Below, in pieces: positions 22,074 to 43,393 of a stretch of DNA of 64,000 nucleotides (its first letter is position 1; the number at the start of each line of letters is the position of its first letter). The notes beneath the pieces were generated by a model. It saw nothing but the letters and a program-made list of their open reading frames with translations, had not been told where the DNA came from and did not search any database. This DNA comes from a virus. The stretch is taken from IMG/VR virus record IMGVR_UViG_3300023184_000083, positions 1-64,000 of that record; one strand, written 5' to 3'. The position numbers and the translations under genes were made by a program.

Positions 22074-22194
22074 GATTGCTTTCCGCCACCGTAGCGGCTT
22101 GGGGAGTGTTTTGTCAAGTGCTGAAGAAAAAGATTTTTTAAAAAATCCTATTTCCTTCGCGCTCGTTGTATTTTGTTGTAATAAAGTTCACTCC

Positions 22195-22566
22195 ATGGAT
22201 AACACTACACGTTTTGAACTTTATATCCGAGCCTTGGAACAATTCGCCGGACGTGAGGGTCATACCAGAGTCCCGGCCGTTCACGTTGAGAACGTTGACG
22301 GCACTGATGTGCATGTCGGGGCTTGGGTGGGTTACACTAGACAGCGTCGCAAGAAGGGATTCCTTCCCGCGGAACGAATCCAAAAACTTGAAAATTTGCG
22401 TGAATGGACGTGGGGCCCTCTGAAGCCAGGGCCGGCGACCAATAATAATAGAAATTCTGAGATTCTTGGGATGCGCAGCCAGGGGATGACGCTTCGTCAA
22501 ATTGCAGATTCGTTTGACTTGAGCCGTCAGCGCATTCACCAGATTGTGAAGAAAACTAATGCCTGA
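22195..22566 (+). CDS. Helicase-associated (HA) domain fused to a sigma70 region-4-like HTH
   Basis: F..REGH..VP...G.WV...R...L...RI..L, then G.TLRQIA..F.LSRQRIHQI. Confidence 0.75.
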   Translation: MDNTTRFELYIRALEQFAGREGHTRVPAVHVENVDGTDVHVGAWVGYTRQRRKKGFLPAERIQKLENLREWTWGPLKPGPATNNNRNSEILGMRSQGMTLRQIADSFDLSRQRIHQIVKKTNA

Positions 22567-22816
22567 CTGGGGACCTCCCGATTGGGATGAAGACTTCGGC
22601 GATGTGGATGATTTAGATTTTACTGCTGTACGCACGGGTTTGTATTTCTTTTTAATTGGAACGTTCTTCCAGGCGGCCGGCGCTTTTGCAATTTTTAAAA
22701 TTTTGCATAATGCAGATGTTATATCTGGTGCTCCGGGATGGCGGGCTTGCTACGTAGCGGTCTTGTCACTGAATATTTTGCGACTTTTTGACCGTGTCTT
22801 CTGGCGTCGTCGCTGA
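22559..22816 (+). CDS. Small membrane protein
   Basis: Two hydrophobic segments. Confidence 0.55.
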   Translation: MPDWGPPDWDEDFGDVDDLDFTAVRTGLYFFLIGTFFQAAGAFAIFKILHNADVISGAPGWRACYVAVLSLNILRLFDRVFWRRR

Positions 22817-22818
22817 GA

Positions 22819-23025
22819 TTAATTAACTCTATTGCGGACAGGCCACTGGTCTACCGGTTCACACGCTGTGCCGGCGAAGTTAATCATTGCTTCTTCAACA
22901 CCGCACGCTGAGCAAATCTCAGTTTTATTATCGGAACGCGATATCGCTCCAGGGTATTCCGCTGGCTGTTCATTATTTGGAATCCACGAGTCAGCGCAAC
23001 GTGGACAAATGTGAGGGACGTTCAT
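22819..23025 (-). CDS. Small zinc-finger protein
   Basis: CPRC...AISRSDNKTEICSACG. Confidence 0.7.
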   Translation of the reverse strand: MNVPHICPRCADSWIPNNEQPAEYPGAISRSDNKTEICSACGVEEAMINFAGTACEPVDQWPVRNRVN

Positions 23026-23183
23026 AAGTCTTCTCCTTTAGTAAGTGGTTTAAGTTTATCGCCGGCAATTAGTTTTGCCAACCTCTTCCGCCACCGTCGC
23101 ACGTTGTAAACACTTACCACGTAGCGCAGCGGCGCTGTTGTTTTTTTCATTTTTTTTGATGACCCCTGGAGGTCTGGGGGAGA

Positions 23184-23238
23184 AAAGCCAGTGCCCCTTG
23201 GCCGTGAGCCGAAAGAACTCACAACCAAAGGGCTGGCT
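23184..23238 (-). terminator. Long hairpin terminator after the vWA gene
   Basis: AGCCAG/CTGGCT outer stem with inner CCTTGG and GTGAG stems. T-run follows on the minus strand. Confidence 0.55.
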
Positions 23239-23283
23239 ACACACATGCTGGGGGGCAGTTCACGTGTGCGAACGTTTTTCACT

Positions 23284-25502: not shown

Positions 25503-25583
25503 GGTAGTAATCCCTTTCGGATGTGGTTGTTTATTACATGTACCAAGTTATCCGTTATTAAGAACAACGACAACCTTGGTTAG

Positions 25584-26081
25584 TTATTTTTTTTCTGCTT
25601 TTCTATCAGCCTTCTCGTCACGAATTTCCCACAAGCCTTTTTTAACTTTGCGGAATGTCTGTGACTCGGAAACAAACTTAAGTGTCGTCTGATAAGAGAA
25701 GCCAGCAATTTCTGTCAGTTGTTCTGTAGTGAACTGTTCAAACAAGTGGTCTTTAGTCCACTCCAAGAAGGCGTCGTACTTATCTGCACGTTTCGGAATC
25801 GGGGTTATGACTACGCCATCTTCAAGGGTCTCGTCACAAAACTGAGGTACCAGTTCTTCAATGATGTCTGTAGGTATCCCATACGACCCAAGGAAGCGAG
25901 AAGCCTTGCCACGACCGTCCCATACCTGTAAACAATAGAGGGCACGAACACGACTAGATATGGAGAACGTGACAGTGCGGGGCACGGAGAACACGTCTCC
26001 GTACTCTTGTTTTGCTTCGTCCCACAAAGACTTATGTGTCTCTAGTATCTCTGTATCTGTAATCATTTTCTTTAATGCCAT
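25584..26081 (-). CDS. Hypothetical protein with a possible C-terminal HTH
   Basis: Directly preceded by motif A. Confidence 0.75.
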   Translation of the reverse strand: MALKKMITDTEILETHKSLWDEAKQEYGDVFSVPRTVTFSISSRVRALYCLQVWDGRGKASRFLGSYGIPTDIIEELVPQFCDETLEDGVVITPIPKRADKYDAFLEWTKDHLFEQFTTEQLTEIAGFSYQTTLKFVSESQTFRKVKKGLWEIRDEKADRKAEKK

Positions 26082-26261
26082 ACCTTTAACCTATCCGTTA
26101 TTAACCATAATGACAACCCGCAGTATTAAATATTCGCATATTTTTTTACACTCTGGCAGCAAGTGAGGCATCATTCAACCCTTTATTAGGGCCGGCTGCA
26201 ACCTGAGCCCCGAGATAATGTTAGAATTTTAAGACAATCTTTCACCAGAACGGGACTCGTC

Positions 26262-26516
26262 ATGAAAAAGAAAAGCCAACTTCACGCACCAGTAGAAGCA
26301 ATCTCATATCTCTTGGAGCCTTCTCCGATTGTTGAAGGAGTTCAAATGGGAGCCCCGGCGGCACCGGCGGCAGAAGAGCCAAAGAAGAAGCCAAAGAAGG
26401 TTGAAGAACCAGTAGCCGAAGCAGTGGTAGAGCCAGTGGTTGAAGCAGCAGCAGAAGTTGTTGCAGAGCCAGTCGCAGAAGTAGTAGAAGCAGCAGCAGA
26501 ACCCGCTGCTGAATAA
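26262..26516 (+). CDS. Glu/Pro/Ala/Val-rich low-complexity protein
   Basis: EPVAE repeats. Followed by a terminator. Confidence 0.55.
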   Translation: MKKKSQLHAPVEAISYLLEPSPIVEGVQMGAPAAPAAEEPKKKPKKVEEPVAEAVVEPVVEAAAEVVAEPVAEVVEAAAEPAAE

Positions 26517-26524
26517 ATAAACGT

Positions 26525-26596
26525 AAAAAGGCAGGGTCTTCCGCCACCGTCGCCGCTTTCAATGAGCAGCAGACGGGGCCAAGGGCCCTGCTTTTT
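26525..26596. terminator. Bidirectional terminator hairpin with a motif B copy inside
   Basis: AAAAAGGCAGGGTCTT...AAGGGCCCTGCTTTTT between convergent genes. Confidence 0.65.
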
Positions 26597-26599
26597 GTT

Positions 26600-26860
26600 T
26601 TAGTAAGTTACGTCGCGCTCGTCAGCGCATTTTAAACAACATGCGTATTTGACCGGTACATCTTGAGAGTCAATTGCATATTCCCAGATGGGCTCATCGT
26701 CTACAAACTCGTCTACGCACCAAGCGCAGTATCCGGAGTCCCGCCCCCAGACGATTTGAATCGGGGACGCCTCAGCACAGGAGGGACACTGTTCATCTTC
26801 GTTAACCCATCCAGTCTTCTTGCAAGTGAAGCAATCTTCCAGTGCGTTCATCTCAGGCAT
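26600..26860 (-). CDS. Cys-rich hypothetical protein
   Basis: Four CxxC-type pairs. Confidence 0.6.
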   Translation of the reverse strand: MPEMNALEDCFTCKKTGWVNEDEQCPSCAEASPIQIVWGRDSGYCAWCVDEFVDDEPIWEYAIDSQDVPVKYACCLKCADERDVTY

Positions 26861-27131
26861 CGGCTTCCTCTGTGAATTCAACGACGATTTCGTCATGCAT
26901 CCCAGCGAGAGCGTTACCGTCAATGAACATGTCTTGGTCATTAGTGATTTCAAAGAAACCTTTGGTCCAGTAGCCGTTGTCGTTTAGGAAGTCGTACTTG
27001 TCGTTCCAAGTTAGGTCTACCCAGTTTTCAGGGAGCACCGATGTGTCGGGGACCGAGAAGTAATCCCATTTCAGGGGCATCTCGCCAATCATCTTGGGAT
27101 AGCGAAGTTCTGTGCAGGTGCGGTAGTTCAT
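26853..27131 (-). CDS. Hypothetical protein
   Basis: Motif A abuts the ATG. Confidence 0.75.
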   Translation of the reverse strand: MNYRTCTELRYPKMIGEMPLKWDYFSVPDTSVLPENWVDLTWNDKYDFLNDNGYWTKGFFEITNDQDMFIDGNALAGMHDEIVVEFTEEADA

Positions 27132-27140
27132 ACATTCAAC

Positions 27141-27383
27141 CTAACCGTTATTAGGGTCAATGACAACCTCTGAGTGGTCAATGATTGCATCAGCGAGCCA
27201 GTTGCAGATGTCACGGTCAGAGCCTTCCCATTCTTCAAACTCTTTTACGACGCGAGCCCAGCCTTCGTTGGTGAGTTCAAGTTCGTCGTTCCAGAATACT
27301 TCTGGTTTTTCCCAGAACAGAACCATCAGTTCGTCGTCTGGGTTCATACCCTCAACGAGGTGGCGTAGTTGTGAGACTTTCAT
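27141..27383 (-). CDS. Hypothetical protein
   Basis: C-terminus EVVIDPNNG is encoded by a motif A copy. Confidence 0.65.
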   Translation of the reverse strand: MKVSQLRHLVEGMNPDDELMVLFWEKPEVFWNDELELTNEGWARVVKEFEEWEGSDRDICNWLADAIIDHSEVVIDPNNG

Positions 27384-27577
27384 TCAGCCTGCTCCCACGC
27401 CATGTAGTCGCCGTCCATGTCACGACAGATGCCAGTGACCCAGAAAGGTTTAGGGTGTGGAGCCTCAGGGTCTTCCCCGATTGCTTCACGAACCTTAATG
27501 AGTGCTTTAGTCATGGCTTCACCATCTGTGAGGGCGTCTACATCAACGCCAACTTGTACTTGTACACGGTAAGTCAT
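27380..27577 (-). CDS. Hypothetical protein
   Basis: Overlapping stop/start with neighbours. Confidence 0.6.
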   Translation of the reverse strand: MTYRVQVQVGVDVDALTDGEAMTKALIKVREAIGEDPEAPHPKPFWVTGICRDMDGDYMAWEQAE

Positions 27578-27834
27578 TACTGCTCCATAAATTCTAGTGA
27601 TTCAACCAAGTCAATAAACCATTCCTTGTTTACGGAATAGACGTCACGAGACTCCTCAATAGCCTTTAGAAGACCTTTCGCTTCATCATCAGTGAAGTAG
27701 TAGAAAGTTTCTAGGTCTGATGGAGTGTCAAACTCCTCAGGTTGAAACGAGATGAAAACATCGTTGTAGCCGTCAGGTGAGTCTGTCCAAGTAACGGCAC
27801 ACTCAACCCCTTTATATTTATCTGAAATACTCAT
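27577..27834 (-). CDS. Hypothetical protein
   Basis: Motif A abuts the ATG. Confidence 0.75.
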   Translation of the reverse strand: MSISDKYKGVECAVTWTDSPDGYNDVFISFQPEEFDTPSDLETFYYFTDDEAKGLLKAIEESRDVYSVNKEWFIDLVESLEFMEQ

Positions 27835-27843
27835 ACCTTCAAG

Positions 27844-28305
27844 TTATCCCTTATTACCCTTAATGACAACCTCAGTGAAGTAATAAAAAAGATTGCTTGT
27901 GAAGATGGTGCGATATCCGTTCCATGCGTCGTCAGTCCCGATGCATAGTTCTCCGATTGTCTTCAACTCTTCGTCGGTGGCTTCGGTAGTAACCCACTTG
28001 AGCCAACCCATCAGACGTTCTTCTGTCGTGTCGTACTCAAGTTCTAGAAGAACCTCAGCCTCGTCGCGCAGAGCCCCGGGAGAATATGACACAGATGTAA
28101 AGCGTGTTACTTCTCCGTACAGAGTGTCTTCCATGATTTTGAGAACGCTCTTGCCTGTGCGAACTGCCATCTGAGATATTTCAGAGTCGCTCGCAACATC
28201 TAAAAAATGTGCGTCGTTTTCATCTAGTTCAGATAAATCTACGACATAGCAGTAATCCAGCGGGACTACCGTCCCAGACTGGGAGTCAATAATAACTTTC
28301 GTCAT
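27844..28305 (-). CDS. Hypothetical protein
   Basis: ATGA overlap with the upstream gene. C-terminus EVVIKGNKG is encoded by motif A. Confidence 0.65.
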   Translation of the reverse strand: MTKVIIDSQSGTVVPLDYCYVVDLSELDENDAHFLDVASDSEISQMAVRTGKSVLKIMEDTLYGEVTRFTSVSYSPGALRDEAEVLLELEYDTTEERLMGWLKWVTTEATDEELKTIGELCIGTDDAWNGYRTIFTSNLFYYFTEVVIKGNKG

Positions 28306-28919
28306 TTCGCCATCTCCTCTGCCCAAAACTTTAGAAGCAGTGCTTCCACCTTGTCTTGCTCTTGTTCGTTCCAGTTTTCGTGCTCTGCTTCTTGCTCATC
28401 GTAGTCAAATGGGTTTTCACACGGTTCGTACATCGCCTCAAAGACGATGGAGCCGTTACGAAAGACATGGTATCCAGCAAAGAAGCCAGCCTCTTCATCG
28501 TAAGAGAACTGAAAGGACAGTTCAGGAAACAACTCTGAGATTTTTAGCCATGCCTTATCGGCTGGTCCCCATGCAGTAGTGAAGTTTATGAGCGCAGTGC
28601 CATCGGCACGGTCAAGAAGTTCAGTGTCGCAGTCGCCCCACTTGGTGCCCCAAGTGTCGTACTCCCACTCGTACCAGTCCGAGTAACCGAACTTAGCGAT
28701 GTTCTCTTCCTTTTGTTTTAGCCATGTCTCGTGCTCAGGGTTATCTGAAGACATTGACCCTGAAAGGATTTTGAGTTCCTCAGGGCAAGGCAAAAGAGAC
28801 GGGATGATGTTTAGTTTTTCATTACCGTTTTCGTCTTTTACAGTAGAGGCAGTTAGGAACCTTTGTAGTTCCTGCTCGTCTCCAGTGATTGACGCTGATG
28901 TATGAACCCAGTTGGGCAT
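28302..28919 (-). CDS. DUF1281/YubB ferredoxin-like domain protein
   Basis: MPNW...WY.W...WGTKW...F.TAW.P...FP.L.F. Confidence 0.8.
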   Translation of the reverse strand: MPNWVHTSASITGDEQELQRFLTASTVKDENGNEKLNIIPSLLPCPEELKILSGSMSSDNPEHETWLKQKEENIAKFGYSDWYEWEYDTWGTKWGDCDTELLDRADGTALINFTTAWGPADKAWLKISELFPELSFQFSYDEEAGFFAGYHVFRNGSIVFEAMYEPCENPFDYDEQEAEHENWNEQEQDKVEALLLKFWAEEMAK

Positions 28920-28994
28920 GATTACCTTCTTTCGGTGATAGTAAATCCGATAAGTAAAACTCTATCCGTTATTAGGGATAGTGACAACCTTACT

Positions 28995-29315
28995 CTAAAG
29001 TTTTTGTTCACTCCAGTGAGTAGCAAATGTCTTTGCGTAGGTGTCGGCGATGTGTGCTGCCGGCAGTCCCGCGACTGGGTCGCTGTGAAGAGTTACATTC
29101 TTGAACTCTGTCCATCGCTCGCCACTACCTGAAACAGGAACGACAAGGAAGTCCAAGTGTCCATAACGACGGCGTGTATCTACAATGCGCACATCAACGA
29201 CGAGTCCCGTTTCTTCTACGGACGCCGTGAGACCTTTGTAAATCTCATAGTCAATTTTCCCGTCACTTGTAAGTGCGTAACGGCTTTTATCTGGTTTGGG
29301 TGTATCTACCAACAT
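28995..29315 (-). CDS. Hypothetical protein
   Basis: V.IVD....YG..D.LV.PV.GSGE.W. Degenerate motif A upstream. Confidence 0.7.
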   Translation of the reverse strand: MLVDTPKPDKSRYALTSDGKIDYEIYKGLTASVEETGLVVDVRIVDTRRRYGHLDFLVVPVSGSGERWTEFKNVTLHSDPVAGLPAAHIADTYAKTFATHWSEQKL

Positions 29316-29411
29316 GGTGAATAACTTTCTTTGTAGGGGGTTTGTTTTCAGCGTAGCGGTTATTATCCATAATCACAACGCCAAACTTGGTCACACTCAG
29401 AGCGACGGGGC

Positions 29412-29669
29412 CTACTCGGCTGGGAAACACCCTGCTATGAAATAGTGTCCGTTTTCGTCCTTGCTAATGCGCCACTCTAAATGTGAGTAGCGATAGCGAA
29501 GGCGGTGGACAACTGAACTAGCACTCACGTAAGTCTTGTATTCTCCGTCTTTGAAACGGTGGGATACCGCCCACGTCCCTTTCGGTTGTTCTGAAAGTTC
29601 GTTTACTAGGTTGCGGATACGATATCCGGGACTAGCGACTGCTGGGGTGGGGACGATTTCTAATGCCAT
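29412..29669 (-). CDS. Hypothetical protein
   Basis: 85-aa ORF in the leftward operon. Confidence 0.6.
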   Translation of the reverse strand: MALEIVPTPAVASPGYRIRNLVNELSEQPKGTWAVSHRFKDGEYKTYVSASSVVHRLRYRYSHLEWRISKDENGHYFIAGCFPAE

Positions 29670-29673
29670 GTTG

Positions 29674-30141
29674 TTACCAAGAACTTTGATATGTAAAGTC
29701 GTAGTCGGTTGGGACGTTCACTAGTGCCTCATTTATCATGAGCACCGTATCTTCTAGGTCACCGAAGTAGAACTCGTCATACTGTGTGCTTCCAAAAAAG
29801 AAACCACTAGCGGTTGGTAGTAACTCATCAGCGAGCCCGTGGTCGGCGAGAACCTTCTGACAGATGTCACGAAGTGCAATTAGATGGTCACGAGACACAT
29901 AAGCCTCACGACAATCGTCTACGCCGTCTTGGCAGTTATCTACAAACCATTGGTGAACTTGGTTTGACTTGCGCCATTGTCCGACCTTGATTTGTATTTG
30001 TGCGCTAGGCATCTCTTTGGTCATGAACTTCTGTGCGCCAGTTGCTTCCACAACTTTTTCAAACAGTTCTGTTCGCTCTTTTCCGAGCCAATCGCCAGAA
30101 CTTGTGTAGCACTTGGCATAGAGGTATTGGTCTAATCCCAT
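29674..30141 (-). CDS. Conserved hypothetical phage protein
   Basis: MGLD.YL...WRK.N..H.WF...LLPT.SGFFFG...Y.SSW. SD AGGAG. Confidence 0.8.
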   Translation of the reverse strand: MGLDQYLYAKCYTSSGDWLGKERTELFEKVVEATGAQKFMTKEMPSAQIQIKVGQWRKSNQVHQWFVDNCQDGVDDCREAYVSRDHLIALRDICQKVLADHGLADELLPTASGFFFGSTQYDEFYFGDLEDTVLMINEALVNVPTDYDFTYQSSW

Positions 30142-30413
30142 AGTGGGTGTACTCCTTTGTTAGTAGTGATAGAAACTCTATCCGTTATTAGCAATAGACA
30201 CAACCTTTGTTTTGTATTTCCTTTCCGCCACCGTCACTGCTTGAGAAACACCATACACCTCTTGCGTTTTGTGATTTCACAAATGGGTGTGTCATGGTTA
30301 TTTGAACCTTGCAAATAGGGGTAAAAGGGTCTAAAAATAATCTTTGGGGGCGAGTTGTCATTGTTCCTAATAACGGATAACTTGAAGGTATCGCAAGTGT
30401 TAGGAGAAACACA

Positions 30414-30803
30414 ATGTCCACAATCCAAGAAAAGGTAGCCATTCAGTACCTCGCCGCAAAGCAGGCAGTTGAAATGGCAGATAAAGCAATGGCAACAGCC
30501 AAGCAGTTGCTTGAAGAGACCTACGCCGAAATGGGCGTGACTGATGTCGTCATTGACGGGGTTAAGGTCGCAATCGTTGAGGCAACTCGTCGCAACTTTG
30601 ATACAGAGGCTCTAAAGGGTCTCATTGTCGCTACAGCGTTTGAGGCAGTCACTAAGACCTCGGTTGAGCCGAAGGCATTTGATAAGGCTATTAAGGCTGG
30701 CACAATCGCCCCCGAAGTAGAAGCACAAGTCGTTACAGGCACATCGTACACTCGCATTACAACCCTAGAGGTTGAAGCGGTTGCTGTCGCTGTCGCCTCT
30801 TAG
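30414..30803 (+). CDS. Hypothetical protein
   Basis: Motif A plus SD AGGAG. Confidence 0.75.
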   Translation: MSTIQEKVAIQYLAAKQAVEMADKAMATAKQLLEETYAEMGVTDVVIDGVKVAIVEATRRNFDTEALKGLIVATAFEAVTKTSVEPKAFDKAIKAGTIAPEVEAQVVTGTSYTRITTLEVEAVAVAVAS

Positions 30804-30815
30804 GGAAGGAACCCA

Positions 30816-31226
30816 ATGGAACAACACGAAATCGCAGAACTCGCTAAGAGGGTAGAGGGCGCACTTGCTCACGACATGATGTTAGAGGACTCGTACGCTT
30901 TCGGACTTTCCGACGGTGCCGAAGTCCCGGTGATGATGGCAGAGTGTGCAGATGTCTACGACTTACTAGACGACCCGATGACCCCGATGACTCTTGACCT
31001 GTTCGGTCATGTGGCTATCGTTTCGCACGGTTGGGCGCAAGACATGACTGACCACAAAGCACCGCCAGTTCGTGTACGCCTACTTGTTGCTGTGTCTCGC
31101 AACGGGGCTCGCTCGTCGGTTGTTCGCTTCATGGACGATACTGACCATGTTCTCTATGACGAACAAGGTGAAGGTAACGGTACTCTCGCTGACGCAATCC
31201 TCGCTCTCTGTGAAAACGGGGAGTAG
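30816..31226 (+). CDS. Hypothetical protein, paralogue of 35369..35788
   Basis: GWA...V.L...F.D...G.G.LA.AI shared. Confidence 0.75.
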   Translation: MEQHEIAELAKRVEGALAHDMMLEDSYAFGLSDGAEVPVMMAECADVYDLLDDPMTPMTLDLFGHVAIVSHGWAQDMTDHKAPPVRVRLLVAVSRNGARSSVVRFMDDTDHVLYDEQGEGNGTLADAILALCENGE

Positions 31227-31264
31227 AGGTTGTCATTGTCGCTAATAAAGGATAACTTGAAGGT

Positions 31265-31612: not shown

Positions 31613-31827
31613 ACTCATAGCAAAAGAAGTTGAGAAACTGGCTGCTGCCGGGGCTGGCGTGACCTGCACCTACTGTGCCAAGCCGTTCCATGATGACGAA
31701 GGCGACTGGAACCAAGTGTTCCTAACAACTGGCACGCTCACCGAGTGGGTGTGTTACGAGTGTTACGAGGAGTGAAATCTTTTTTACCGAGGTTGTCATT
31801 GCTACTAATAAAGGATACATTGAAGGT

Positions 31828-34244: not shown

Positions 34245-34310
34245 GCAAACCAAGAACAAAACGATAGTGTGGGGTGGGGAAACTCACCCCATTACTACGG
34301 AGAGGAATAA

Positions 34311-34553
34311 ATGATTATTCAACCAAGTCTCACGGAGGCTTTTCTTCGGGGCTCCCGTCTCGGGAAACAAGATAGGTCTTTGGACATTTCTAACTACGAA
34401 CCACTCAACAGTTCATGGGAAGGTAAGACCGCCTATCAAATTATTGACGAACTGCTTAGTGGTGGTGAAGTAGAACAGTTTTACCATGAGTTATGCGACA
34501 CTTTCTGTGCTGGTTACTTTGAGGGAAACAGGAAGCCCCGTGTCTCTCTTTAG
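34311..34553 (+). CDS. Hypothetical protein
   Basis: SD GGAGAGG. Confidence 0.6.
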   Translation: MIIQPSLTEAFLRGSRLGKQDRSLDISNYEPLNSSWEGKTAYQIIDELLSGGEVEQFYHELCDTFCAGYFEGNRKPRVSL

Positions 34554-34914
34554 TTGCGAAATCTGCGGGAACACAGTAGACCCCAAAGGCAAAAGCACGG
34601 TTCAACTAGTGAACGCTTGGATACGGGGCGGCTCACGTGCGCTGTTCTCTATTGAAGATAGAACTTATCGCTATCGCCACGAAGTGTGTTGCGCTAGACC
34701 TGACGATAACGGACAACAGGAGTCACTGTTCGGATGAGTAAAATAATTACCGCTTGGGCGGCTCTAATATCCGCACCTTTAATGTTCCTGCTTCCGCCGG
34801 GGCTCCAGATGTACGCCGTTCTGGTTTTTGCTTTTTCGTTGCTGAAATTGTTTGTAGTCAAATAATCTTTTGCTCAAGGTTGTCATTGTTACTAATAATG
34901 GATAACTTGAAGGT

Positions 34915-35145
34915 ATGACATATTTTGAAACATTCCAAGGCTTGCTTGATAGCGAGTATTACTCTATTGGCGTGACGGGCGCAGAAGCCCTCGTGAACAT
35001 GCTTGACGACCTGAACCAAGGTCGTCTCGTGGAGTTCTTCTTAGAACAAGAAGTCACCGAAGCCGAGTTCCTGATGACCGTGAACCGTCTCGCTGTTAAG
35101 TGGGCTTCCGAAAACGTACTTAACGTAGTCGTAGGGGTGAAGTGA
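34915..35145 (+). CDS. Hypothetical protein
   Basis: Motif A abuts the ATG. Confidence 0.7.
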   Translation: MTYFETFQGLLDSEYYSIGVTGAEALVNMLDDLNQGRLVEFFLEQEVTEAEFLMTVNRLAVKWASENVLNVVVGVK

Positions 35146-35333
35146 TGGGACAAGCCCCGGCTATTGACAAGCAATGTTTCAAGCACCTGATGCTGATGTT
35201 GTGGAACGCCTACCTGATGCTACTGCTACCCTCGGGGCTGCTGTTCGTCGTGCCGATGGCGTTTAGCGCATACCACGCATACCACGCACTAAAACTTCTT
35301 CTGAAGGTTGGCATTACGCCTAATAACAGATAG
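35142..35333 (+). CDS. Small membrane protein
   Basis: Hydrophobic. C-terminus KVGITPNNR is encoded by motif A. Confidence 0.5.
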   Translation: MMGQAPAIDKQCFKHLMLMLWNAYLMLLLPSGLLFVVPMAFSAYHAYHALKLLLKVGITPNNR

Positions 35334-35368
35334 AGTGTAACTATCAACTACTACCGAGAGGAAATCTC

Positions 35369-35788
35369 ATGACCCCTATCCAATACGCAACAGAATTACT
35401 AACTAAATCAGGTGACACTTGGGAAATCCCTACGCCACTTTTGTACGGAGTTACAGACGCAGGTGAGTTCCAACTTCTTTCTTCTGACATTGCCGACATT
35501 TATGAAGCCATTGACGAAGTCACAATCCCTACCTACATGGTTGCGTTCGGCGTAGTCACGACTGGCTGGGCTGCGCCACTCAACGCAGATGGCACAATGG
35601 AAGGCGCACCTTCTAAGCACGCTCAACGCCGTCGTGTGAAGTTGGTATCGGTCATAAACGACAACGGTGCTGGCTCGGCTATGTCTTTCGCAGACGAACC
35701 CGAAGATGTAATCACAGATGAAGGTAGTGCTACTGGCTCACTCGCAGAGGCAATCACCGAAGCGTGGGAAAACAAGGCAACAGCCTAA
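35369..35788 (+). CDS. Hypothetical protein, paralogue of 30816..31226
   Basis: See paralogue entry. Confidence 0.75.
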   Translation: MTPIQYATELLTKSGDTWEIPTPLLYGVTDAGEFQLLSSDIADIYEAIDEVTIPTYMVAFGVVTTGWAAPLNADGTMEGAPSKHAQRRRVKLVSVINDNGAGSAMSFADEPEDVITDEGSATGSLAEAITEAWENKATA

Positions 35789-35948
35789 GTGTTCGCTACG
35801 AGGGGTGGGGATACCTGCCCCTCACAGCACATTGGTGGCCCCGTGCATTTGCTATCCGCCACCGTCGCTACTTGAGAAAAGCGCACACCCAAGCCCCCGG
35901 GGCTCACGCGTCGCATTTTGACTTTGTTATGTGTTTATGTCTGTCTCT

Positions 35949-35981
35949 TTTTCCACAACCTGTGGATAATTCTGTGGATAA
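35949..35981. promoter_or_regulatory. Cluster of three DnaA boxes
   Basis: TTTTCCACA 35949-57. TGTGGATAA 35961-69 and 35973-81. Confidence 0.75.
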
Positions 35982-36034
35982 GTTTTCTTGTTGGCGAGGT
36001 TGGCATTATGCCTAATAACGGATAACTTGAAGGT

Positions 36035-36304
36035 ATGAAGTTCACAGACATCACCACCCCATCAGGCATAGTAACCATTGACCAGACAGACGGTTACATG
36101 ACCTCTACTCCAAACTCCGAGGCTGTCACTCGTTGGTCTTTCTTTCCTAAATATGATTATCTCCATGTGACTTGGGGGCAGACAAAGTACATCTATTCGG
36201 GTGTGCCGTTCTCTGTTATCGCTCGTCTCTTGGCAACAGATAGCGTTGGTCGCTTCCTTAACACGGAAGTTAAGCCGAACTACGAAGTAACAAAGGTGGA
36301 CTAA
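36035..36304 (+). CDS. KTSC-domain protein
   Basis: L.V......Y.Y.GVP......L...DS.G.F.N..VK..Y. Confidence 0.75.
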   Translation: MKFTDITTPSGIVTIDQTDGYMTSTPNSEAVTRWSFFPKYDYLHVTWGQTKYIYSGVPFSVIARLLATDSVGRFLNTEVKPNYEVTKVD

Positions 36305-36386
36305 TGAAAACACTGCTCGCAATTATCCTTAGCCTGCCTCTCGGGGCTGTAGTCTTCATGGCTGTCGTTCTTGCAGGGGGTGACAA

Positions 36387-36767
36387 ATGACGCCTGCCGA
36401 GTGTCGCTCTCGTTTGTTTGGCTATGTCCTAGCGAACCATAGGTACGGAGACTTCCACCCATCTCGTGTGTTTGTAGAGTTAGCCCTCATTGCTGGAGAG
36501 AACGCCTTTGACGACTCTGACCTCATCATGGAGTTCGTTGACGGGGCTCTCGCCGGCTATAACCCCAACACTGTTGTCGTAGACCCACCCTCTCTCATGG
36601 CTGGCTTTGACGCACTTCACCAAGACGCTTGGCTTGCTGGTCTAGCATGGGGCGAGAAGAAGGACTCCGAACAACACGAGTGGGATAAGTTGCCCACCTA
36701 CGATGAGTTCCGTGAATGGTTAAACTCTCCGTTTGACGAGGAAGAAGAAGAACTTGAAATGCTGTGA
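36387..36767 (+). CDS. Hypothetical protein
   Basis: 126-aa ORF with a G-rich SD. Confidence 0.6.
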   Translation: MTPAECRSRLFGYVLANHRYGDFHPSRVFVELALIAGENAFDDSDLIMEFVDGALAGYNPNTVVVDPPSLMAGFDALHQDAWLAGLAWGEKKDSEQHEWDKLPTYDEFREWLNSPFDEEEEELEML

Positions 36768-37170
36768 TAACTGCGGGGTTGAAGCCCCGGACTCCCAACA
36801 ACAGGGAGGCTATATTGACTACGGCTGGTCGTTGAACTGGCTTGCACTCGGTCACTACGGTGGTTTTACGGACTGTGTTCCCGAACGAGACTACGAAGTA
36901 GATAGTCCTCGTTACCTCGCTCATCTCTGTCACGACTGCTGTATTAAACTCCTGAACGTGCTGCCGGGACTCGCAAAGTTGATTTTCCCACAAGAAGGTG
37001 GGGGTCACCCGAACATCAACGAACACGATGCAGACGATGGAACCTTGACTCCACCCTGCTGTCAGTGGGCGTGGACGTGGAAACGTAGCCCCGCTGGCGC
37101 ACCGAACGCTGGTCAGTACGAGACATACTTTGCTACGGCTGATGGTGGCTGGAAAAAAATTAACGACTAA
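36733..37170 (+). CDS. Cys-rich hypothetical protein (start uncertain)
   Basis: CDNC...GHYGGFTD...LCHDC. Confidence 0.65.
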   Translation: MTRKKKNLKCCDNCGVEAPDSQQQGGYIDYGWSLNWLALGHYGGFTDCVPERDYEVDSPRYLAHLCHDCCIKLLNVLPGLAKLIFPQEGGGHPNINEHDADDGTLTPPCCQWAWTWKRSPAGAPNAGQYETYFATADGGWKKIND

Positions 37171-37208
37171 GGGTTGTCATTACCCTTAATAACGGATAGT
37201 CTGAAGGT

Positions 37209-37430
37209 ATGAGTGAATACGAAATACCAGAAATGCCCGACTACTGCCATTGTAGTAGCAACGGAGAGTGCGCCTACTGCCTCTCCCAAGACGAACTAGA
37301 ACTAAAGGTTTCCTTCCATGTTCAGAACGCAGGAAAAGAAGTGCTGTTCACAGGGTCGCTTGCGCAGTGTAGAGCCTTCATGGAGAAGAACGAAATTGCC
37401 CGTAGAGAGTTGCTGTGGGTTAAACAGTAA
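37209..37430 (+). CDS. Small Cys-containing protein
   Basis: Motif A abuts the ATG. Terminator follows. Confidence 0.7.
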   Translation: MSEYEIPEMPDYCHCSSNGECAYCLSQDELELKVSFHVQNAGKEVLFTGSLAQCRAFMEKNEIARRELLWVKQ

Positions 37431-37443
37431 CGTCACAAGAATT

Positions 37444-37470
37444 ACCCCTGCCTTCGGGTGGGGGTTTTTT
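37444..37470 (+). terminator. Intrinsic terminator
   Basis: ACCCCTGCC-TTCG-GGTGGGGGT followed by a T-run. Confidence 0.8.
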
Positions 37471-37481
37471 ATTGCCCGAAC

Positions 37482-37745
37482 TCAGTCCGCCGCGGGACTG
37501 CCGGAAGAACGACGTATCTTCATTACTTGACTGTAGACAGACATCATGGCATCGTTGAGTTCTTTGTTGTTGTCAGAAGCAACGAACTTCATGTCGGCTC
37601 TTGTCCAACACGTGACGTTCCAACGCCCCGCTTGCCGGAGTATTTCAAAGTCAAGGTTCATTAGGTCAAACCACTTCGTAAACTGGGCGATGTCGTTCCC
37701 TGATGTGGCGAGTTTCTTTTCTTCTGTTCCCCAAGATGATGGCAT
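37482..37745 (-). CDS. Hypothetical protein
   Basis: ORF convergent on the terminator. Confidence 0.5.
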   Translation of the reverse strand: MPSSWGTEEKKLATSGNDIAQFTKWFDLMNLDFEILRQAGRWNVTCWTRADMKFVASDNNKELNDAMMSVYSQVMKIRRSSGSPAAD

Positions 37746-37840
37746 GCTTTTACTGTAGTGCATCGGGACCCCTGGCCGGCCGCACAAACAAACCAAACAT
37801 GCAGGTTGTGATAAGCCCTAATAAGGGATAGAGTGTAAGT

Positions 37841-38048
37841 ATCGGTAAAGGACACCGAGTGGAAACCAAAGACTGAGTAATCTCCTAAGGCAACTCGGCG
37901 ATTGGGAGTGCCACAAATATGCAGAGAAGCCCTACCTGCTGGATTGTTTCACGACTAATAACCTCGTTCTTCTCTCAGAGCGTCAATGGTGAATCACAGA
38001 GAACTAGAACCCCATCACAGTCTGGCGATTGTGTTGGGGTTCTTTTTT
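37841..38048 (+). ncRNA. Candidate structured ncRNA of about 205 nt
   Basis: Has its own motif A promoter (37803-35) and terminator (38006-48). No convincing ORF inside. Several complementary segments. Confidence 0.6.
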
Positions 38049-38260
38049 GTCCCCTACCGGCCGCAGCCCCGTCGTTGTCTTCTTGGGTCTAGTTTTTCAT
38101 AGCCTTTCCGCCACCGTCACTGCTTCAGGAAACAACAACACTCCGCTGCGGCGGGGCTAGGGGCCCCAGACTGAGAGTCAGGATTTGGGTGGCAGGAAAG
38201 AAGATTTATTTCTTTCATTTTGACGTTGTAATAACGACTAATAATGGATAGATTGAAGAT

Positions 38261-38575
38261 ATGAACATTTCACTTGACAACGAAAACCTAAAGATAGATG
38301 GTCGTGTGGTTGCAAAAATAACCTCAAAGGCTTCATTTATCCTTCTTCGTGACACACTCCTAAAAACACTCCCACCAACCGAGGCTGTTTATTTGGCTCT
38401 CGCAATGATGGGAGAGTCTCGCACGACAGACATTGCTGACTTTACTGGACAGGATAAGTCAAACTGCCTTCGTCGCTTGGCTGAGTTGGAAGAAGCGGGG
38501 CGCATTGTGCTCACAGATAACGCTTACAACAACGGACTTCGTGGTCGCCCAACCCGTATGTGGGCAGTCGCCTAG
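38261..38575 (+). CDS. Winged-HTH DNA-binding protein
   Basis: T.DIA..TG..KSN..R.L..LE..G.I...GRP...W. Confidence 0.75.
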   Translation: MNISLDNENLKIDGRVVAKITSKASFILLRDTLLKTLPPTEAVYLALAMMGESRTTDIADFTGQDKSNCLRRLAELEEAGRIVLTDNAYNNGLRGRPTRMWAVA

Positions 38576-38732
38576 AGTCGTTCTCCCTCTTGTGTTGAGG
38601 TATCATCTTGGTACAACGACACGAGAGGGTAGTTATGACTAAGAAAGACGACGACGGGGCTGACAAGAAGCAAGAAAAGCCCAAGAAGCAGGAAAGACCA
38701 CGCTTCGTCCAACGAGTTTGGGGAAGTAATAA

Positions 38733-38999
38733 ATGCTGTGGGAGACCACCCGTATGATAGTCCCCATCTTTGTTCTGAACCGCATCCCCGAGACAACCTC
38801 TTTGTGGGTGTGTCAGAACTGCGAAGACTACTGGTGGGAGTCCCGAGATTGCGAAGTATGCAACGCAACGGGTGAACTGGTTGCTTCTCCAAAACAAACT
38901 GTCGGTTGCAACATGGGCGATATGTTCGGGGCTGATTTCTTGTTCCACAAGCAAATGAACAGACACATCAAGAAAAACATACTGTGGGCACCTTGGTAA
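38733..38999 (+). CDS. Cys-rich hypothetical protein
   Basis: CQNC...CEVC. Confidence 0.55.
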   Translation: MLWETTRMIVPIFVLNRIPETTSLWVCQNCEDYWWESRDCEVCNATGELVASPKQTVGCNMGDMFGADFLFHKQMNRHIKKNILWAPW

Positions 39000-39055
39000 A
39001 AAATCTTTTTTTGTCAGAGGTTGTCATTGTTCTTTATTAAGGATAGATTGAAGAT

Positions 39056-39340
39056 ATGAAAATACTTACAGACGACGATATGGAAGTTGTAGCCAACGCT
39101 AACGATGGCTTCGGTTCCTTATTCATCACACTCGCTGGTCTAATGGATAGACTCGGCATTAAGACACTAAAGTCAGCCCTCACCTATTTGCCTGAAGAAA
39201 TTGCAGGCGATGTAGAGATGGATAAAGCACTAAAGTGGGTTCGCTGGGCTATGGGTCAAAAAGGCGATTGCCCAACTCCTGAAATTGGAACGGCTTGTCA
39301 TCACTTTCTTGCTGTAGGATTGCTTGAGGAAACAGAATAA
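39056..39340 (+). CDS. Hypothetical protein
   Basis: Motif A abuts the ATG. Confidence 0.7.
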   Translation: MKILTDDDMEVVANANDGFGSLFITLAGLMDRLGIKTLKSALTYLPEEIAGDVEMDKALKWVRWAMGQKGDCPTPEIGTACHHFLAVGLLEETE

Positions 39341-39639
39341 TGGTCGGCAAAAACGCACCCAACTTTGACCCACAGCCAATGATGGATAGGCTCACACAGC
39401 CGATGTCATTTGACGAGTGGATTGTCATCGGCATGAACAGCGGTTGGTGTAGCCCACCGTTGTGTGAAACCCACGACGGGGTCCCGCAAACTAAAGCCGA
39501 AGAAGAGCAGTGGGAAGAAGGTGGCGACCCATGTATTCATGTGATTCGCCTGTTTGACTCACCCGAAGATAAGGCTGAGGCAGAAGAGGGTCACTCACCC
39601 TCGCAGTGGCGCAACCATTGGAAGCAGTCAGATGTCTGA
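39340..39639 (+). CDS. Conserved hypothetical phage protein
   Basis: F.EW...G...GWC.P..C.THDG.P....E......DPC.H..RL. Confidence 0.7.
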   Translation: MVGKNAPNFDPQPMMDRLTQPMSFDEWIVIGMNSGWCSPPLCETHDGVPQTKAEEEQWEEGGDPCIHVIRLFDSPEDKAEAEEGHSPSQWRNHWKQSDV

Positions 39640-39820
39640 GCACTCATACTTTCGTGCAGACTTAGAGAACGACATGAAGTTCCTCGTCGGTGCTGGGCTC
39701 ATAGAAGTCGCCGGCATTGACGAAGACGGGGACTGGCTGTACCAGCCGACTGCTAAAGGAAAAGCAATGTCACTAGAAATGATGCAACAAATGATTGAAG
39801 CCTCTGGGGAAGAAGAATGA
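39632..39820 (+). CDS. Hypothetical protein
   Basis: GLIEV.GI..DG.WLY..T.KG. Confidence 0.6.
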   Translation: MSEHSYFRADLENDMKFLVGAGLIEVAGIDEDGDWLYQPTAKGKAMSLEMMQQMIEASGEEE

Positions 39821-40050
39821 CCGTGGCCCCGTTGTTCAAAGAATTCGCATCAGCCGAGGAGTTTGAGGAAGCGGTTAAGTCTGCTTACGGACACCCATCA
39901 TGTACATTGCGTTACGGACAGTTGTACTTCAACATGCTTACAAAGTGTCGCCCTGAAATCGCTAAAGCGTTACAAGGCGGGGCACTAGACCCGTTCTACA
40001 AAGAGGGCGTATCAGACGCAACACGCAGTGTCGTAGAGTCTCGTTGGTAA
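39817..40050 (+). CDS. Hypothetical protein
   Basis: RYGQ..FN.L...RP..A.......DPFY. Confidence 0.65.
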   Translation: MTVAPLFKEFASAEEFEEAVKSAYGHPSCTLRYGQLYFNMLTKCRPEIAKALQGGALDPFYKEGVSDATRSVVESRW

Positions 40051-40087
40051 GGTTGCCATTGTTGCTAATAAGGGTTACACTGAAGTC

Positions 40088-40264
40088 ATGAACATACCAG
40101 CACCATTTAAAGGTACAGCAGAACAAGCGAAAGCAAACTTTGCAACTCATCGTTTTAGTAACGACGACGACTTTAGATGTGGTCAGTGCGACTGCAAACC
40201 ATGGCACATAACAGCCAGTTATCCGTGCGGTGAGGAACCACCTCGCATTTTCGTAAACGAATAA
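40088..40264 (+). CDS. Small Cys/His protein, 58 aa (not in the ORF track)
   Basis: Motif A abuts the ATG. RCGQCDCKPWH..ASYPCG.EPPR. Terminator at 40284-40315. Confidence 0.7.
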   Translation: MNIPAPFKGTAEQAKANFATHRFSNDDDFRCGQCDCKPWHITASYPCGEEPPRIFVNE

Positions 40265-40511
40265 ACCATCTCCACTCAGAGCGAAAGCCGGGACTCTTCG
40301 GGGTCCTGGCTTTTTCGCATTATGGGTTTGCTTTCCGCCACCGTCACTACTTGAGTAAACATTTGTTCCGGCTGCTGCCGGTCCCGCGCGCCATCTTCAG
40401 ATAATGAGTCAAACGGGGGGCAAAAAAGGCAAATAAAAAGTTTCTATTTAAGGTTGTGTTTACCCTTAATAACGGTTAGAGTGTTCTTATGAGTGGAGAG
40501 GGGGTGAAAAA

Positions 40512-40652
40512 ATGATGACAACCACGACTTGCTGGTTTTGCGGCGTACTGTGCCCAATCCAAGGTTCTGCGGAACTGCCCGAGGGCGGGGCCGAGCCTGC
40601 GGGTACTTGCCCTGCCTGCGAAGCGGAGCAGGCGCTAGAAGCACTACTCTAG
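40512..40652 (+). CDS. Small zinc-binding protein, 46 aa (not in the ORF track)
   Basis: CWFC...CPAC. Downstream of motif A. Confidence 0.55.
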   Translation: MMTTTTCWFCGVLCPIQGSAELPEGGAEPAGTCPACEAEQALEALL

Positions 40653-40706
40653 CCTTCCAACCCCCCAAAGCCCTCCGACAGGACAGGCTAGGGGTACGGG
40701 CGGGGC

Positions 40707-40937
40707 TCAGTTCTCCCAGGGGGTGCCATTCCAGTTGCCTAGCCGCTTAGCCATTGAGCCGAGCGTGTTCGCTCCGCCTTCCCATTTGATTTCCTTAGCC
40801 CCGGTTTCCATCAACTTAAGTTGACGCCTGATGTCTTCAAGCATTTGTTCAAGGAGACGCAAGCGCCCCTCCAGTCGCTTGATGCGCTGTTCGTGCAGTT
40901 CGTCAGGAAGTTCAGGGTTGTCGTTCTGTTCGCTCAT
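40707..40937 (-). CDS. Small coiled-coil protein
   Basis: SD GAGG and a heptad pattern. Confidence 0.55.
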   Translation of the reverse strand: MSEQNDNPELPDELHEQRIKRLEGRLRLLEQMLEDIRRQLKLMETGAKEIKWEGGANTLGSMAKRLGNWNGTPWEN

Positions 40938-41053
40938 TTCCTCAGACTACACGCAGCGGGACTCAACGTCGGGGGACACGCCCCCATAAAACCCCTCAAA
41001 ACTTTCTTGCTCATAATGTTGTAATTGTTACTAATAAAGGATAGAGTGTTCTT

Positions 41054-41182
41054 ATGAGTGGTGAGGAGGTGAATATGGGAATTGATTGCGAAGAAACTTG
41101 CAAGTGTGGTATTACTTACCAAACGTGGCTAGTTTACGACGTTGAGTGCATTGACGATAAAGTGCACGTGTGGGAAGACTAA
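41054..41182 (+). CDS. Small Cys-rich protein (alternative start 41075)
   Basis: Motif A upstream. Terminator at 41202-41234. Confidence 0.5.
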   Translation: MSGEEVNMGIDCEETCKCGITYQTWLVYDVECIDDKVHVWED

Positions 41183-41286
41183 ATAGTCACCCACAACAAA
41201 ATAACCCGTCTGTGCCCTCCGCAGACGGGTTTTTGTTTGCCCTGATTCACGTCGTATCTGGGGCCCCGCGATAGACTGAGAGCATC

Positions 41287-43203
41287 ATGATTCATCTCTA
41301 TCTGTCGGACGACCACCTTGTGTTTGACTTCCCGTATGACGCAGAGCAGGTTGCAGAGATAAAGCGCATCAAAGGGGCTAAATGGGACAAGGTTGCCCGA
41401 GTTTGGCGCTTGCCCATCACGGCGTTGGAGGAGAGTCGGGGCTTCGCCGGCCGCCACAACTTCGTCATCTCCTCAGAAGTCATGCTTTTTACGCTGCCCA
41501 AGCACAACAACTCCGAAACCAACGGCGTATATATCAAGGGCGATTGGGTATATCTTGCTTTTGACTACGACCCAGTACGTGTTCGTTCAGTAAAACAAAT
41601 TGCTGGCATCACTTGGCATGCGAAGACCAAGGCGTGGAGAGCCCCGATGGCGAGCATCTCCGAGGTAGTGGGTTGGGCAACCACCTTCAAGCAGCCTATT
41701 GAAAGCAATGTTACTGACATGCTCAACCAAATAGAGAGTTCTCTTACAGAACTAAAGGACGCATCACGAATGGTTGATGCTGAACTTGAAGTGGCGGGAC
41801 TACCGCTGCTGCCGTACCAGAGGGCTGGAGTTGCATACGCATCTAACGCACGGCGCACATTCATTGCCGATGAAATGGGATTGGGGAAAACTCTACAGGC
41901 GATTGCGACACTGGAGTATGTTTATGATTCCTACCCAGCAGTTGTCGTGTGTCCTGCAACGCTCGTTCTTAACTGGAAAGCCGAATACAACAGGTGGCTT
42001 CCTTCTCGCAAGGTCGCAGTAGTAACTGACCGCAAGGAATTTCCGACAGAATATGATGTAGTTGTTATAAGTTATTCTAACCTTAATCACTGGGAAAAGC
42101 AACTTCTAAATCACCAATCTTATGTTTTTGATGAAAGTCATTACTGCAAGACCCCAACAGCACAGCGAACGAAGTCAGCCGTGAAGATTGCACGGACAGC
42201 CCCGGCGGCGGGAATTGTCTTGTGTTTGACGGGGACACCAGTAACCAACCGACCAGCAGAATATGCAAGCCAACTTAGAATCATTGGTCAGTTAGACAAG
42301 TTCGGTGGGGAGTGGGGTTTCTACAGGAGATACTGCGCTGCGTTCAAAGACAAATGGGGACAATGGCATCTTGAGGGTCACTCTCATCTTGATGAACTCA
42401 ACGAACGACTGCGTTCTACTTGTTACATCAGGCGTACAAAAGAGCAGGTTCTTACTGATTTGCCACCCGTGATGCACGACCCCATCGTCGTTGACGGGAC
42501 TGCTGCCGGCCTACGTGAGTACAAAAAGGCAGAAGATGACATTGTTGAATACTTGGTACAGCGCGCTAAAGAGATTGCGTTGGAACTTGGTAAGTCTCCT
42601 AACTCGGCAGCGGTCGTAGCGAGAATCAAAGCCGAATCAAATCAACACCTCGTTCGTCTCTCAGTTTTGCGTCGCTTGTCAGCAAAAGCGAAGATGCCAG
42701 CAATTATTGACTGGGTAGAGTCCCGTGTGGCGGAGGGCCGCAAAGTCGTAATCGCCGCTCACCACAGAGATGTAGTTGATGAGTTAGCCAAGAAGTTCGG
42801 CAACTTGCGAATCCAAGGCGGCATGGACATTGAGGAGATTGAGAAGCAGAAGAACCTGTTCATGACTTTGCCGGCCGCAGAGGCCCCGTGCATCGTGCTG
42901 AGCATCCAAGCAGCCAAGACTGGTCACAACCTTCAGGTGGCTCAGGATGTGCTGTTCGTGGAACTCCCATGGACGCCTGCTGATGTAGACCAGACTTACA
43001 GTAGATGTCATAGATTGGGGCAGAAGTCGTCAGTCACGGCTACATACATGTTATGTGCTGGAACGATTGATGAAGAAATCTACTCGCTGATTGAACGTAA
43101 GCGGGGCGTAGTAAACCAAGCAGTTGATGGTGTTGCATACACAGAGTCAGATGCTGTGTCTGACTTGGTTATGAGTAGATTGTTTAAGGAAATTAACGAT
43201 TAA
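41287..43203 (+). CDS. SNF2-family helicase with two N-terminal HARP-like domains (annealing-helicase type)
   Basis: ADEMGLGKT, DESH, LTGTP, RCHRLGQ. Repeated F.YD......K.I.G..W....K.W. Confidence 0.9.
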   Translation: MIHLYLSDDHLVFDFPYDAEQVAEIKRIKGAKWDKVARVWRLPITALEESRGFAGRHNFVISSEVMLFTLPKHNNSETNGVYIKGDWVYLAFDYDPVRVRSVKQIAGITWHAKTKAWRAPMASISEVVGWATTFKQPIESNVTDMLNQIESSLTELKDASRMVDAELEVAGLPLLPYQRAGVAYASNARRTFIADEMGLGKTLQAIATLEYVYDSYPAVVVCPATLVLNWKAEYNRWLPSRKVAVVTDRKEFPTEYDVVVISYSNLNHWEKQLLNHQSYVFDESHYCKTPTAQRTKSAVKIARTAPAAGIVLCLTGTPVTNRPAEYASQLRIIGQLDKFGGEWGFYRRYCAAFKDKWGQWHLEGHSHLDELNERLRSTCYIRRTKEQVLTDLPPVMHDPIVVDGTAAGLREYKKAEDDIVEYLVQRAKEIALELGKSPNSAAVVARIKAESNQHLVRLSVLRRLSAKAKMPAIIDWVESRVAEGRKVVIAAHHRDVVDELAKKFGNLRIQGGMDIEEIEKQKNLFMTLPAAEAPCIVLSIQAAKTGHNLQVAQDVLFVELPWTPADVDQTYSRCHRLGQKSSVTATYMLCAGTIDEEIYSLIERKRGVVNQAVDGVAYTESDAVSDLVMSRLFKEIND

Positions 43204-43308
43204 GGAATTCCTTTCCGCCACCGTTGCCACTTCAGGAAAAACTATTCTGGGGTTCTCCTCCGGGGCTTTTGCTTTTAATATTTAATTTAATGCTTTTATA
43301 CCCTAAAG

Positions 43309-43342
43309 CGAACATACGTTCTGTTGATAAATCTGTGGATAA
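43309..43342. promoter_or_regulatory. LexA (SOS) box followed by two DnaA boxes
   Basis: CGAAC-ATAC-GTTCT 43309-22. TGTTGATAA 43322-30. TGTGGATAA 43334-42. Confidence 0.65.
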
Positions 43343-43393
43343 TTTTTTTGAATAAAGGTTGCAATTACCCTTAATAACAGATAACTTGAAGGT

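Follow-up and report, generated by a model that had tools for sequence, protein, structure and literature searches.

The stretch of DNA analysed here (the window, 64,000 nt) comprises bases 1-64000 of a 77,724-bp IMG/VR virus record, IMGVR_UViG_3300023184_000083 (called G000 in the comparisons), and the element under study is a junction cassette that recurs among its early genes. The record encodes an HK97-type capsid protein, RNR, ThyX, SSB, a primase-helicase, an SNF2 helicase and, at 18743-19078, WhiB, a protein restricted to actinobacteria that serves to recognise actinophages in lakes (PMC6802176). The metagenomes carrying this DNA come from lakes and fresh water. CheckV puts the completeness of the 77,724-bp record at ~49%, and the complete or near-complete relatives measure 137.8 kb (G006, with terminal repeats) and 155.9 kb (G012). 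The window is probably the early region of a freshwater actinobacteria phage with a full genome of ~140-155 kb. No integrase, resolvase, or tyrosine or serine recombinase was found in the relatives of 100% and 98% completeness, so the phage is probably lytic. A search of the phage GenBank collection at the DNA level returned no close relative.

An earlier note on this DNA had described six cassettes and a degenerate seventh, each as a motif B, a CGGGGC word, a variable payload of host-type sites and a motif A promoter. Repeat finding and a pattern scan recovered all seven in their places, and the repeats fall into two families, motif A and motif B. Each of the six cassettes starts 2 nt upstream of a B core and ends one base short of an ATG, with 118-144 nt between the B and A cores. 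The order of B, GC word, variable stretch and A is found also in at least three related IMG/VR phage records (four phages in all). However, the cassettes are a subset of both families. Motif A, with 27 copies, outnumbers motif B; just six of the 18 A copies in the plus-strand block follow a B, the other 12 plus-strand copies lack one, and five B copies have no canonical A. The B-to-A distance in the relatives ranges from 73 to 317 nt. Because A and B occur apart and their distance varies, the claim of a single modular unit conserved at both ends does not hold; what stands of it is the A promoter, the payload sites and the repeats as break points. Four of the six cassettes have the CGGGGC word, counted as a cassette part in the same note, at +43 to +47 (32583, 35898, 38152 and 43261); the cassette at 40334 has the variant form GTCCCG, and that at 30224 has none. 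The word is scattered through the entire early region and is not cassette-specific. No Rfam family was found in the cassettes. On balance, we take the cassette to be three independent layers lying side by side (A, payload and B), not one element. Motif A and the payloads are known kinds of element in a new version, and motif B has no explanation among the known ones.

Motif A has a consensus of approximately aGGTTGTCATTG-N3-CTAATAA-N-GGATA-N3-TG-N4-T-ATG. Its 27 good copies are spread over 25549-49726, nine of them on the minus strand (25549-30204, 45715 and 49701) and 18 on the plus strand (30354-43383). Their -35 TTGTCA, 17-nt spacer and -10 TAnnnT are of sigmaA type and bear out the assignment of A as a promoter; a generic sigma-70 scan picks up 10 of the copies. 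In 17 of the 27, an ATG occupies the seventh base after TAnnnT, where about one copy in 64 would have it by chance, and opens an open reading frame (ORF) of 42-165 aa. Eight further copies have leaders of 24-36 nt with a Shine-Dalgarno site. The leaderless sigmaA genes of actinobacteria carry TAnnnT, 6-7 nt and then the start codon, and motif A has the same -10 form and the same distance to the start. From this geometry, the ATG of the 17 copies is predicted to be the first transcribed base of a leaderless mRNA. The cassette copies, all on the plus strand, include four with such a predicted leaderless ATG, at 32675-32715 (cassette 2, ATG 32713), 35997-36037 (cassette 3, ATG 36035), 38223-38263 (cassette 4, ATG 38261) and 43356-43396 (cassette 6, ATG 43394). 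The copy of cassette 1 (30352-30393) has a 24-nt leader with a Shine-Dalgarno site, and that of cassette 5 lies at 40451-40492.

In contrast to the leaderless sigmaA promoters of actinobacteria, motif A is a 40-nt block that includes the spacer, conserved within one phage and different between phages. The relatives retain the -35, the spacing, the -10 and the ATG, each with a spacer of its own (CTAATAGCC-N-A in G001, CTTACTACC-N-A in G005). Either a phage factor or concerted evolution among the copies accounts for this private spacer. The complete relatives have no detectable RNA polymerase or sigma gene (including sigma region 2), and the host polymerase is therefore most likely what reads motif A. 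A search for a T7-type polymerase also found nothing, but it was weak, as its positive control gave no signal either. We propose that A is the phage's own host-type sigmaA promoter, that in two thirds of the copies the transcript would start at the A of the ATG, and that each small early gene downstream of such a copy would be made as a leaderless mRNA. Two A promoters, at 40449-40508 and 41014-41073, share 80% identity that reaches through the first seven codons (M-S-G-E-x-V-K), and 40511-40662 is replaced in lake strains.

The mobility of these units was assessed with assembled contigs, 90-95% alike, from two other lake studies over 26001-46000. One strain has lost 32668-32884. This loss runs between two consecutive A copies and takes out exactly one A promoter (that of cassette 2) together with its 65-aa gene. 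A loss of 27127-27378, bounded by two start codons, removes one minus-strand unit. The segment 43253-43636, comprising the payload, the A copy and the 67-aa gene, is replaced in a strain by a 44-nt A-like copy, the left break falling right after B and its companion box2 (described below), and 31289-31594 is likewise replaced in a strain. Ten B sites occupy syntenic positions in G000 and G001, and individual small genes have crossed them together with their promoters. The shuffling of gene blocks at the conserved ends suggested by the earlier note, after the promoter-stem-loop (PeSL) cassettes of T4-type phages, is therefore seen for A, where indels end at its copies, but for B just one breakpoint was found; genes move singly with their A promoter and not as blocks from B to B. 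The many A copies probably provide the homology by which single promoter-plus-gene units are gained, lost or moved, and would in this way drive the turnover of accessory genes. That the whole cassette is one mobile PeSL-like unit whose ends act mainly as homology for block shuffling is highly improbable. Its constant order in four phages and the indels at repeats would fit, but the separate occurrence and variable spacing of A and B, the failure of B-to-B blocks to move and the invariance of B across base compositions at which A changes largely refute it.

The PeSL elements (PMC2839356, PMC4122927) resemble motif A in several respects: a variable region has many near-identical host-type early promoters set among its small accessory genes, the -35 is preceded by an AT-rich stretch, the version is lineage-specific, and indels between close relatives end at the repeats. 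The strong sigma-70-type early promoter of PeSL has its counterpart here (TTGTCA, 17 nt, TAnnnT, 27 copies), and so do the indels ending at the elements (the 32668-32884 loss and the 43253-43636 replacement). The upstream stem-loop terminator does not, as 12 of the 18 plus-strand A copies are without B or hairpin; a terminator scan of the heterogeneous hairpins after B passes only two. The Shine-Dalgarno site and start at the 3' end of PeSL are also lacking, since 17 of the 27 A copies end at the ATG and leave no room for a Shine-Dalgarno site. Here, moreover, the host is actinobacterial, the phage group is unrelated and an extra polar box, B, not known from PeSL elements, stands at unit borders. 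The comparison holds for how A works, and membership in PeSL fails on the stem-loop and the Shine-Dalgarno site.

The payloads named in the earlier note (a palindrome, an IdeR-like site with parS, DnaA boxes and a LexA-like box) were all located. Payload 1 is the palindrome TTTGTGA-TT-TCACAAA at 30268-30283, within a longer hairpin. Payload 2 (32634-32664) joins an IdeR-like 14-bp palindrome, TTAGGCATACCTAA (32634-32647), to a perfect 16-bp parS (32649-32664), the single perfect copy in the window. This block is kept in G001, with 34 of 35 bases matching in a genome whose other intergenic DNA does not align, and is kept in part in G005, where a parS half lies upstream of an A copy. Payload 3 (35950-35981, plus strand) contains two perfect DnaA boxes (35961 and 35973) and an imperfect one, and payload 6 (43309-43342, plus strand) a LexA-like box, CGAAC-N4-GTTCT (43309-43322), followed by a DnaA box (43334). 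Perfect DnaA boxes number nine in the window against 0.68 expected, and in G000, G001, G004 and G005 DnaA boxes stand ~18-20 nt upstream of the GGTTG of an A copy. LexA boxes show no enrichment window-wide (3 against 1.8 expected). Outside the B array, at 58573-58642, two LexA-like boxes (AGAACAGGTGTTCG) precede a pair of perfect DnaA boxes, an arrangement like that at 43309-43342.

Their retention by relatives agrees with the idea of payloads made of host-regulator sites, and as judged by sequence the payloads are real operator-like sites upstream of the first promoter past each boundary. Counted from this first A promoter, operators for ParB, DnaA, LexA and an IdeR-like factor would lie at about -45 to -90, where they probably tune that promoter or recruit those host proteins. 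The window may be read as an early-gene wiring plan of abundant uncultured lake phages, in which the host polymerase would act through a private leaderless promoter and ParB, DnaA and LexA are predicted to be tied to the first promoter of each block.

Motif B has the consensus s-C-T-T-TCCGCCACCGT, then 5-6 free bases, then TTG, with a core of 14-15 bp. At one mismatch or fewer the record contains 12 matches, all on the plus strand, against 0.82 expected. Eleven are real copies, and the match at 69942, inside the capsid gene, is probably due to chance. Six copies pair the core with box2 (CTTGAGAAAC). The first (30224-30250) lies at the divergent junction that opens the plus-strand block, and the second (32538-32565) is 4 nt past a stop codon. 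The next three are at 35855-35882, 38107-38134 and 40334-40361, and the sixth (43214-43250) is 10 nt past the stop of the SNF2 helicase gene, the sequence from 43253 on being that replaced in the lake strain. Three cores occur further upstream. The one at 22082-22092 is 113 nt before the start of a gene considered below and 8 nt from a minus-strand gene start. The second, at 23087-23097, sits between two minus-strand genes, for a zinc-ribbon protein (22819-23025) and a 497-aa protein, and is followed by a hairpin with a T-run. The third, at 26540-26550, comes after a plus-strand island gene and before a terminator-like hairpin (26574-26590). Two copies with one mismatch, at 20598-20608 and 21095-21105 (TCCACCACCGT), are syntenic with copies in G001. 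The island gene itself (26262-26516), set in the minus-strand block, encodes an 84-aa repeat protein rich in Glu, Ala and Val with no homologue in the relatives; its place in G001 and G005 is taken by a plus-strand gene and then B.

B is found only between genes, where it abuts the gene on its 5' side. The distance is 4-14 nt if that gene ends in a stop codon there and 5-12 nt if it is a minus-strand gene with its start there. The box2 that follows is lineage-specific (CTTSAGRAAAC here, CTTAGCGCAAAC in G002, ATTAGAAAC in G004), and GCCCCG/CGGGGC occurs in either orientation at +33 to +47 of B in G000, G002 and G004. B with box2, often with GYCCCG ~40 bp downstream, marks the left edge of the intergenic regions at transcription-unit borders.

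The distribution of B was surveyed by a pattern scan of IMG/VR, in which many contigs match, and 17 multi-copy records were analysed. They contain 117 copies, 110 of them unique (11 in G000 and 17 in G006), with an invariant core and all copies of a record on one strand. In complete genomes the array occupies one early region of 15-25 kb, which in G012 is at the record end. On the gene maps, the junctions that have B include tandem, divergent, convergent and minus-minus ones. The relatives carry at least 14 genes in the opposite orientation to their G000 orthologues, and none of the B copies is flipped. Since genes invert and B never does, selection maintains the polarity of B. Its core is identical in phages of 45-59% GC among which A differs, and B is therefore under selection of its own. 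The earlier view of B as the second regulatory end of the cassette gives way to that of a polar boundary signal that disregards the direction of transcription.

Downstream of B there is no shared RNA fold, the hairpins are heterogeneous and no TAnnnT follows. As a host regulon motif B was rejected, occurring 0-4 times per genome in 126 actinobacterial genomes, like a reversed-pattern control. From these results B is a phage-private, DNA-level, direction-dependent signal and not a promoter, terminator or RNA. In a literature search, the B word matched primers and linkers only. B was also tried as a leaderless-start promoter, because an ATG or GTG stands at +18 to +25 of seven of the 17 G006 copies; the ORFs so opened look spurious, the TG of the apparent starts belongs to box2, and the rate over all records equals that of the control (11/118 against 7.9%).

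It is quite unlikely that B acts in plus-strand transcription, whether as a small promoter served by a polymerase or factor that has escaped recognition or within a terminator or antiterminator RNA. B with box2 is of the size of a promoter for a single-subunit polymerase, hairpins with T-runs come after the copies at 23087, 26540 and 43214, and in the plus-strand block B is 4-70 nt past stop codons. However, B is present also at minus-minus and convergent junctions, where a plus-strand transcript would be useless, and the GC partner flips its orientation between phages. The absence of TAnnnT, of a common fold among the heterogeneous hairpins and of a polymerase or sigma gene in the complete relatives speaks against such a role as well, as do the G006 start codons 18-25 nt past B, which are part of box2 and open implausible ORFs.

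The strict polarity of B irrespective of gene direction is what would be needed if B were read by something moving one way along the DNA, such as stepwise genome entry, a replication fork or primase, a strand-specific nickase of the T5 type or a DNA-end nuclease with B as its Chi-like signal. In complete genomes the array occupies a single 15-25 kb region, which in G012 is at the record end; this fits such a process, and GC skew is positive over the entire window, so that B polarity fits one replication direction. On the other side, a Chi or primase site would not need to lie only between genes and abut the left gene border, and companions such as box2 and GYCCCG are typical of protein-binding sites. 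We consider one-way tracking unlikely.

Integron attC sites likewise stand at each unit border facing one way, independent of gene direction, and B could be the recombination site of an integron-like cassette array, with the direct repeats allowing units to excise or insert in either orientation. The lake-strain replacement that begins right after B and box2 at 43252 would agree with this, as would two G000/G001 alignments that end just past B and the two copies private to one genome (30224 in G000 and 16354 in G001). Unlike attC, however, B has no folding inverted repeats (no pairs in the consensus), units here bring their own promoters, and the relatives of 100% and 98% completeness encode no tyrosine or serine recombinase. 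The ten syntenic B sites of G000 and G001 have kept their places while the genes within units move one at a time, and no B-to-B deletion is present among the strain joints. The gene beside B at 32303-32533 has a homologue in G003 that also lies beside B but in the opposite orientation, so there is no fixed relation between B and gene. An integron-like array thus has a low probability in our judgement.

The gene that starts 113 nt past the core at 22082 offers a different explanation. It encodes (22195-22566, plus strand) a 123-aa protein with an HA domain and a sigma-70 region-4-like helix-turn-helix (HTH), referred to as the HA+HTH protein. Every B-bearing record covering the region has the gene, in the same orientation as B throughout, and 11 of 12 records place a B copy 72-113 nt upstream of its start. 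The 12 homologues share 31-73% identity, and the recognition helix, S-R-Q-R-V-H-Q-I, is almost invariant. An AlphaFold model (pLDDT 87) consists of two helical domains joined by a proline-rich linker. Foldseek gave no whole-protein match for this model, and likeness to solved structures (resolvase, LuxR and KorA types) is confined to the C-terminal HTH. Our best guess from these sequences is that the HA+HTH protein is a candidate reader of B. By analogy with the TipsytheTRex repressor (PMC9283540), a monomer with two DNA-reading domains would suit an asymmetric site.

Among the closest parallels for such an arrangement are the stoperators of cluster A mycobacteriophages (L5 gp71, TipsytheTRex repressor; PMC6550527, PMC9283540). 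They too are asymmetric sites of 13-15 bp, with many copies in short intergenic regions of an actinophage, and a small monomeric two-domain HTH reader is encoded within the array, as is proposed here. However, stoperators follow the direction of transcription, and B, found beside plus- and minus-strand genes and between minus-strand genes, does not. Stoperators are genome-wide in temperate phages, whose immunity repressor binds them; B is limited to the early region, and no integrase was found in the complete relatives. Stoperators also co-vary with the repressor between phages, in contrast to the B core, which is invariant in the 17 records. The comparison fails on orientation and co-variation, and probably on lifestyle.

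We tentatively propose that B, bound in one orientation by the HA+HTH protein, may act as a boundary or switch-off signal for early units, a reading that we regard as possible but short of probable. Several observations weigh against it. Binding of B by this protein is a proposal, and the linkage of gene and motif could reflect autoregulation or positional coincidence. In G007 the recognition helix differs and B is unchanged. The partner word GYCCCG is missing at many B copies, notably in G003 and G005. A simple bound regulator alone does not explain the fixed orientation of B across units of both directions. More doubtful is the wider claim that B, box2 and GYCCCG form a hitherto undescribed polar boundary system of large freshwater actinophages, in which selection would hold the word in one orientation as nearby genes invert, and which would be read by a new HA+HTH class of proteins and divide the early region into units by a mechanism unlike promoters, terminators, operators and known recombination sites. 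Good precedents are lacking for a DNA signal so strictly polar and indifferent to gene direction, and the candidate reader makes B testable.

The GC partner word has a distribution of its own. Between 20.9 and 51.4 kb there are ~90 copies of CGGGRC/GYCCCG, and the other 46.7 kb has four. The 25-kb early region of G006 has 29 copies, and its remaining 113 kb has four where ~35 would be expected. These counts indicate that the word is purged outside the early region. The pattern looks like avoidance of an asymmetric restriction-type site with the early region exempt, or like a signal allowed only there. Palindromic restriction sites are strongly avoided, as GATC, AGCT and GGCGCC are absent from the whole 77.7-kb genome. 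GATC is also missing in the relatives except G003, and G002 and G004 are in addition devoid of CCGG.

Two large proteins, of 1654 aa (window 53401-58365) and 1074 aa (L142:10029-13253), match no Pfam family. Contigs encoding a WhiB 61-80% identical to that of the phage occur in metagenome-assembled genomes labelled Gammaproteobacteria, Thiobacillus, Planctomycetaceae, Phycisphaerae and Poseidoniaceae (L177-L182), and are probably misbinned phage contigs. True actinobacterial matches (Acidimicrobiales, Ilumatobacteraceae) have 40-52% identity to the phage WhiB.

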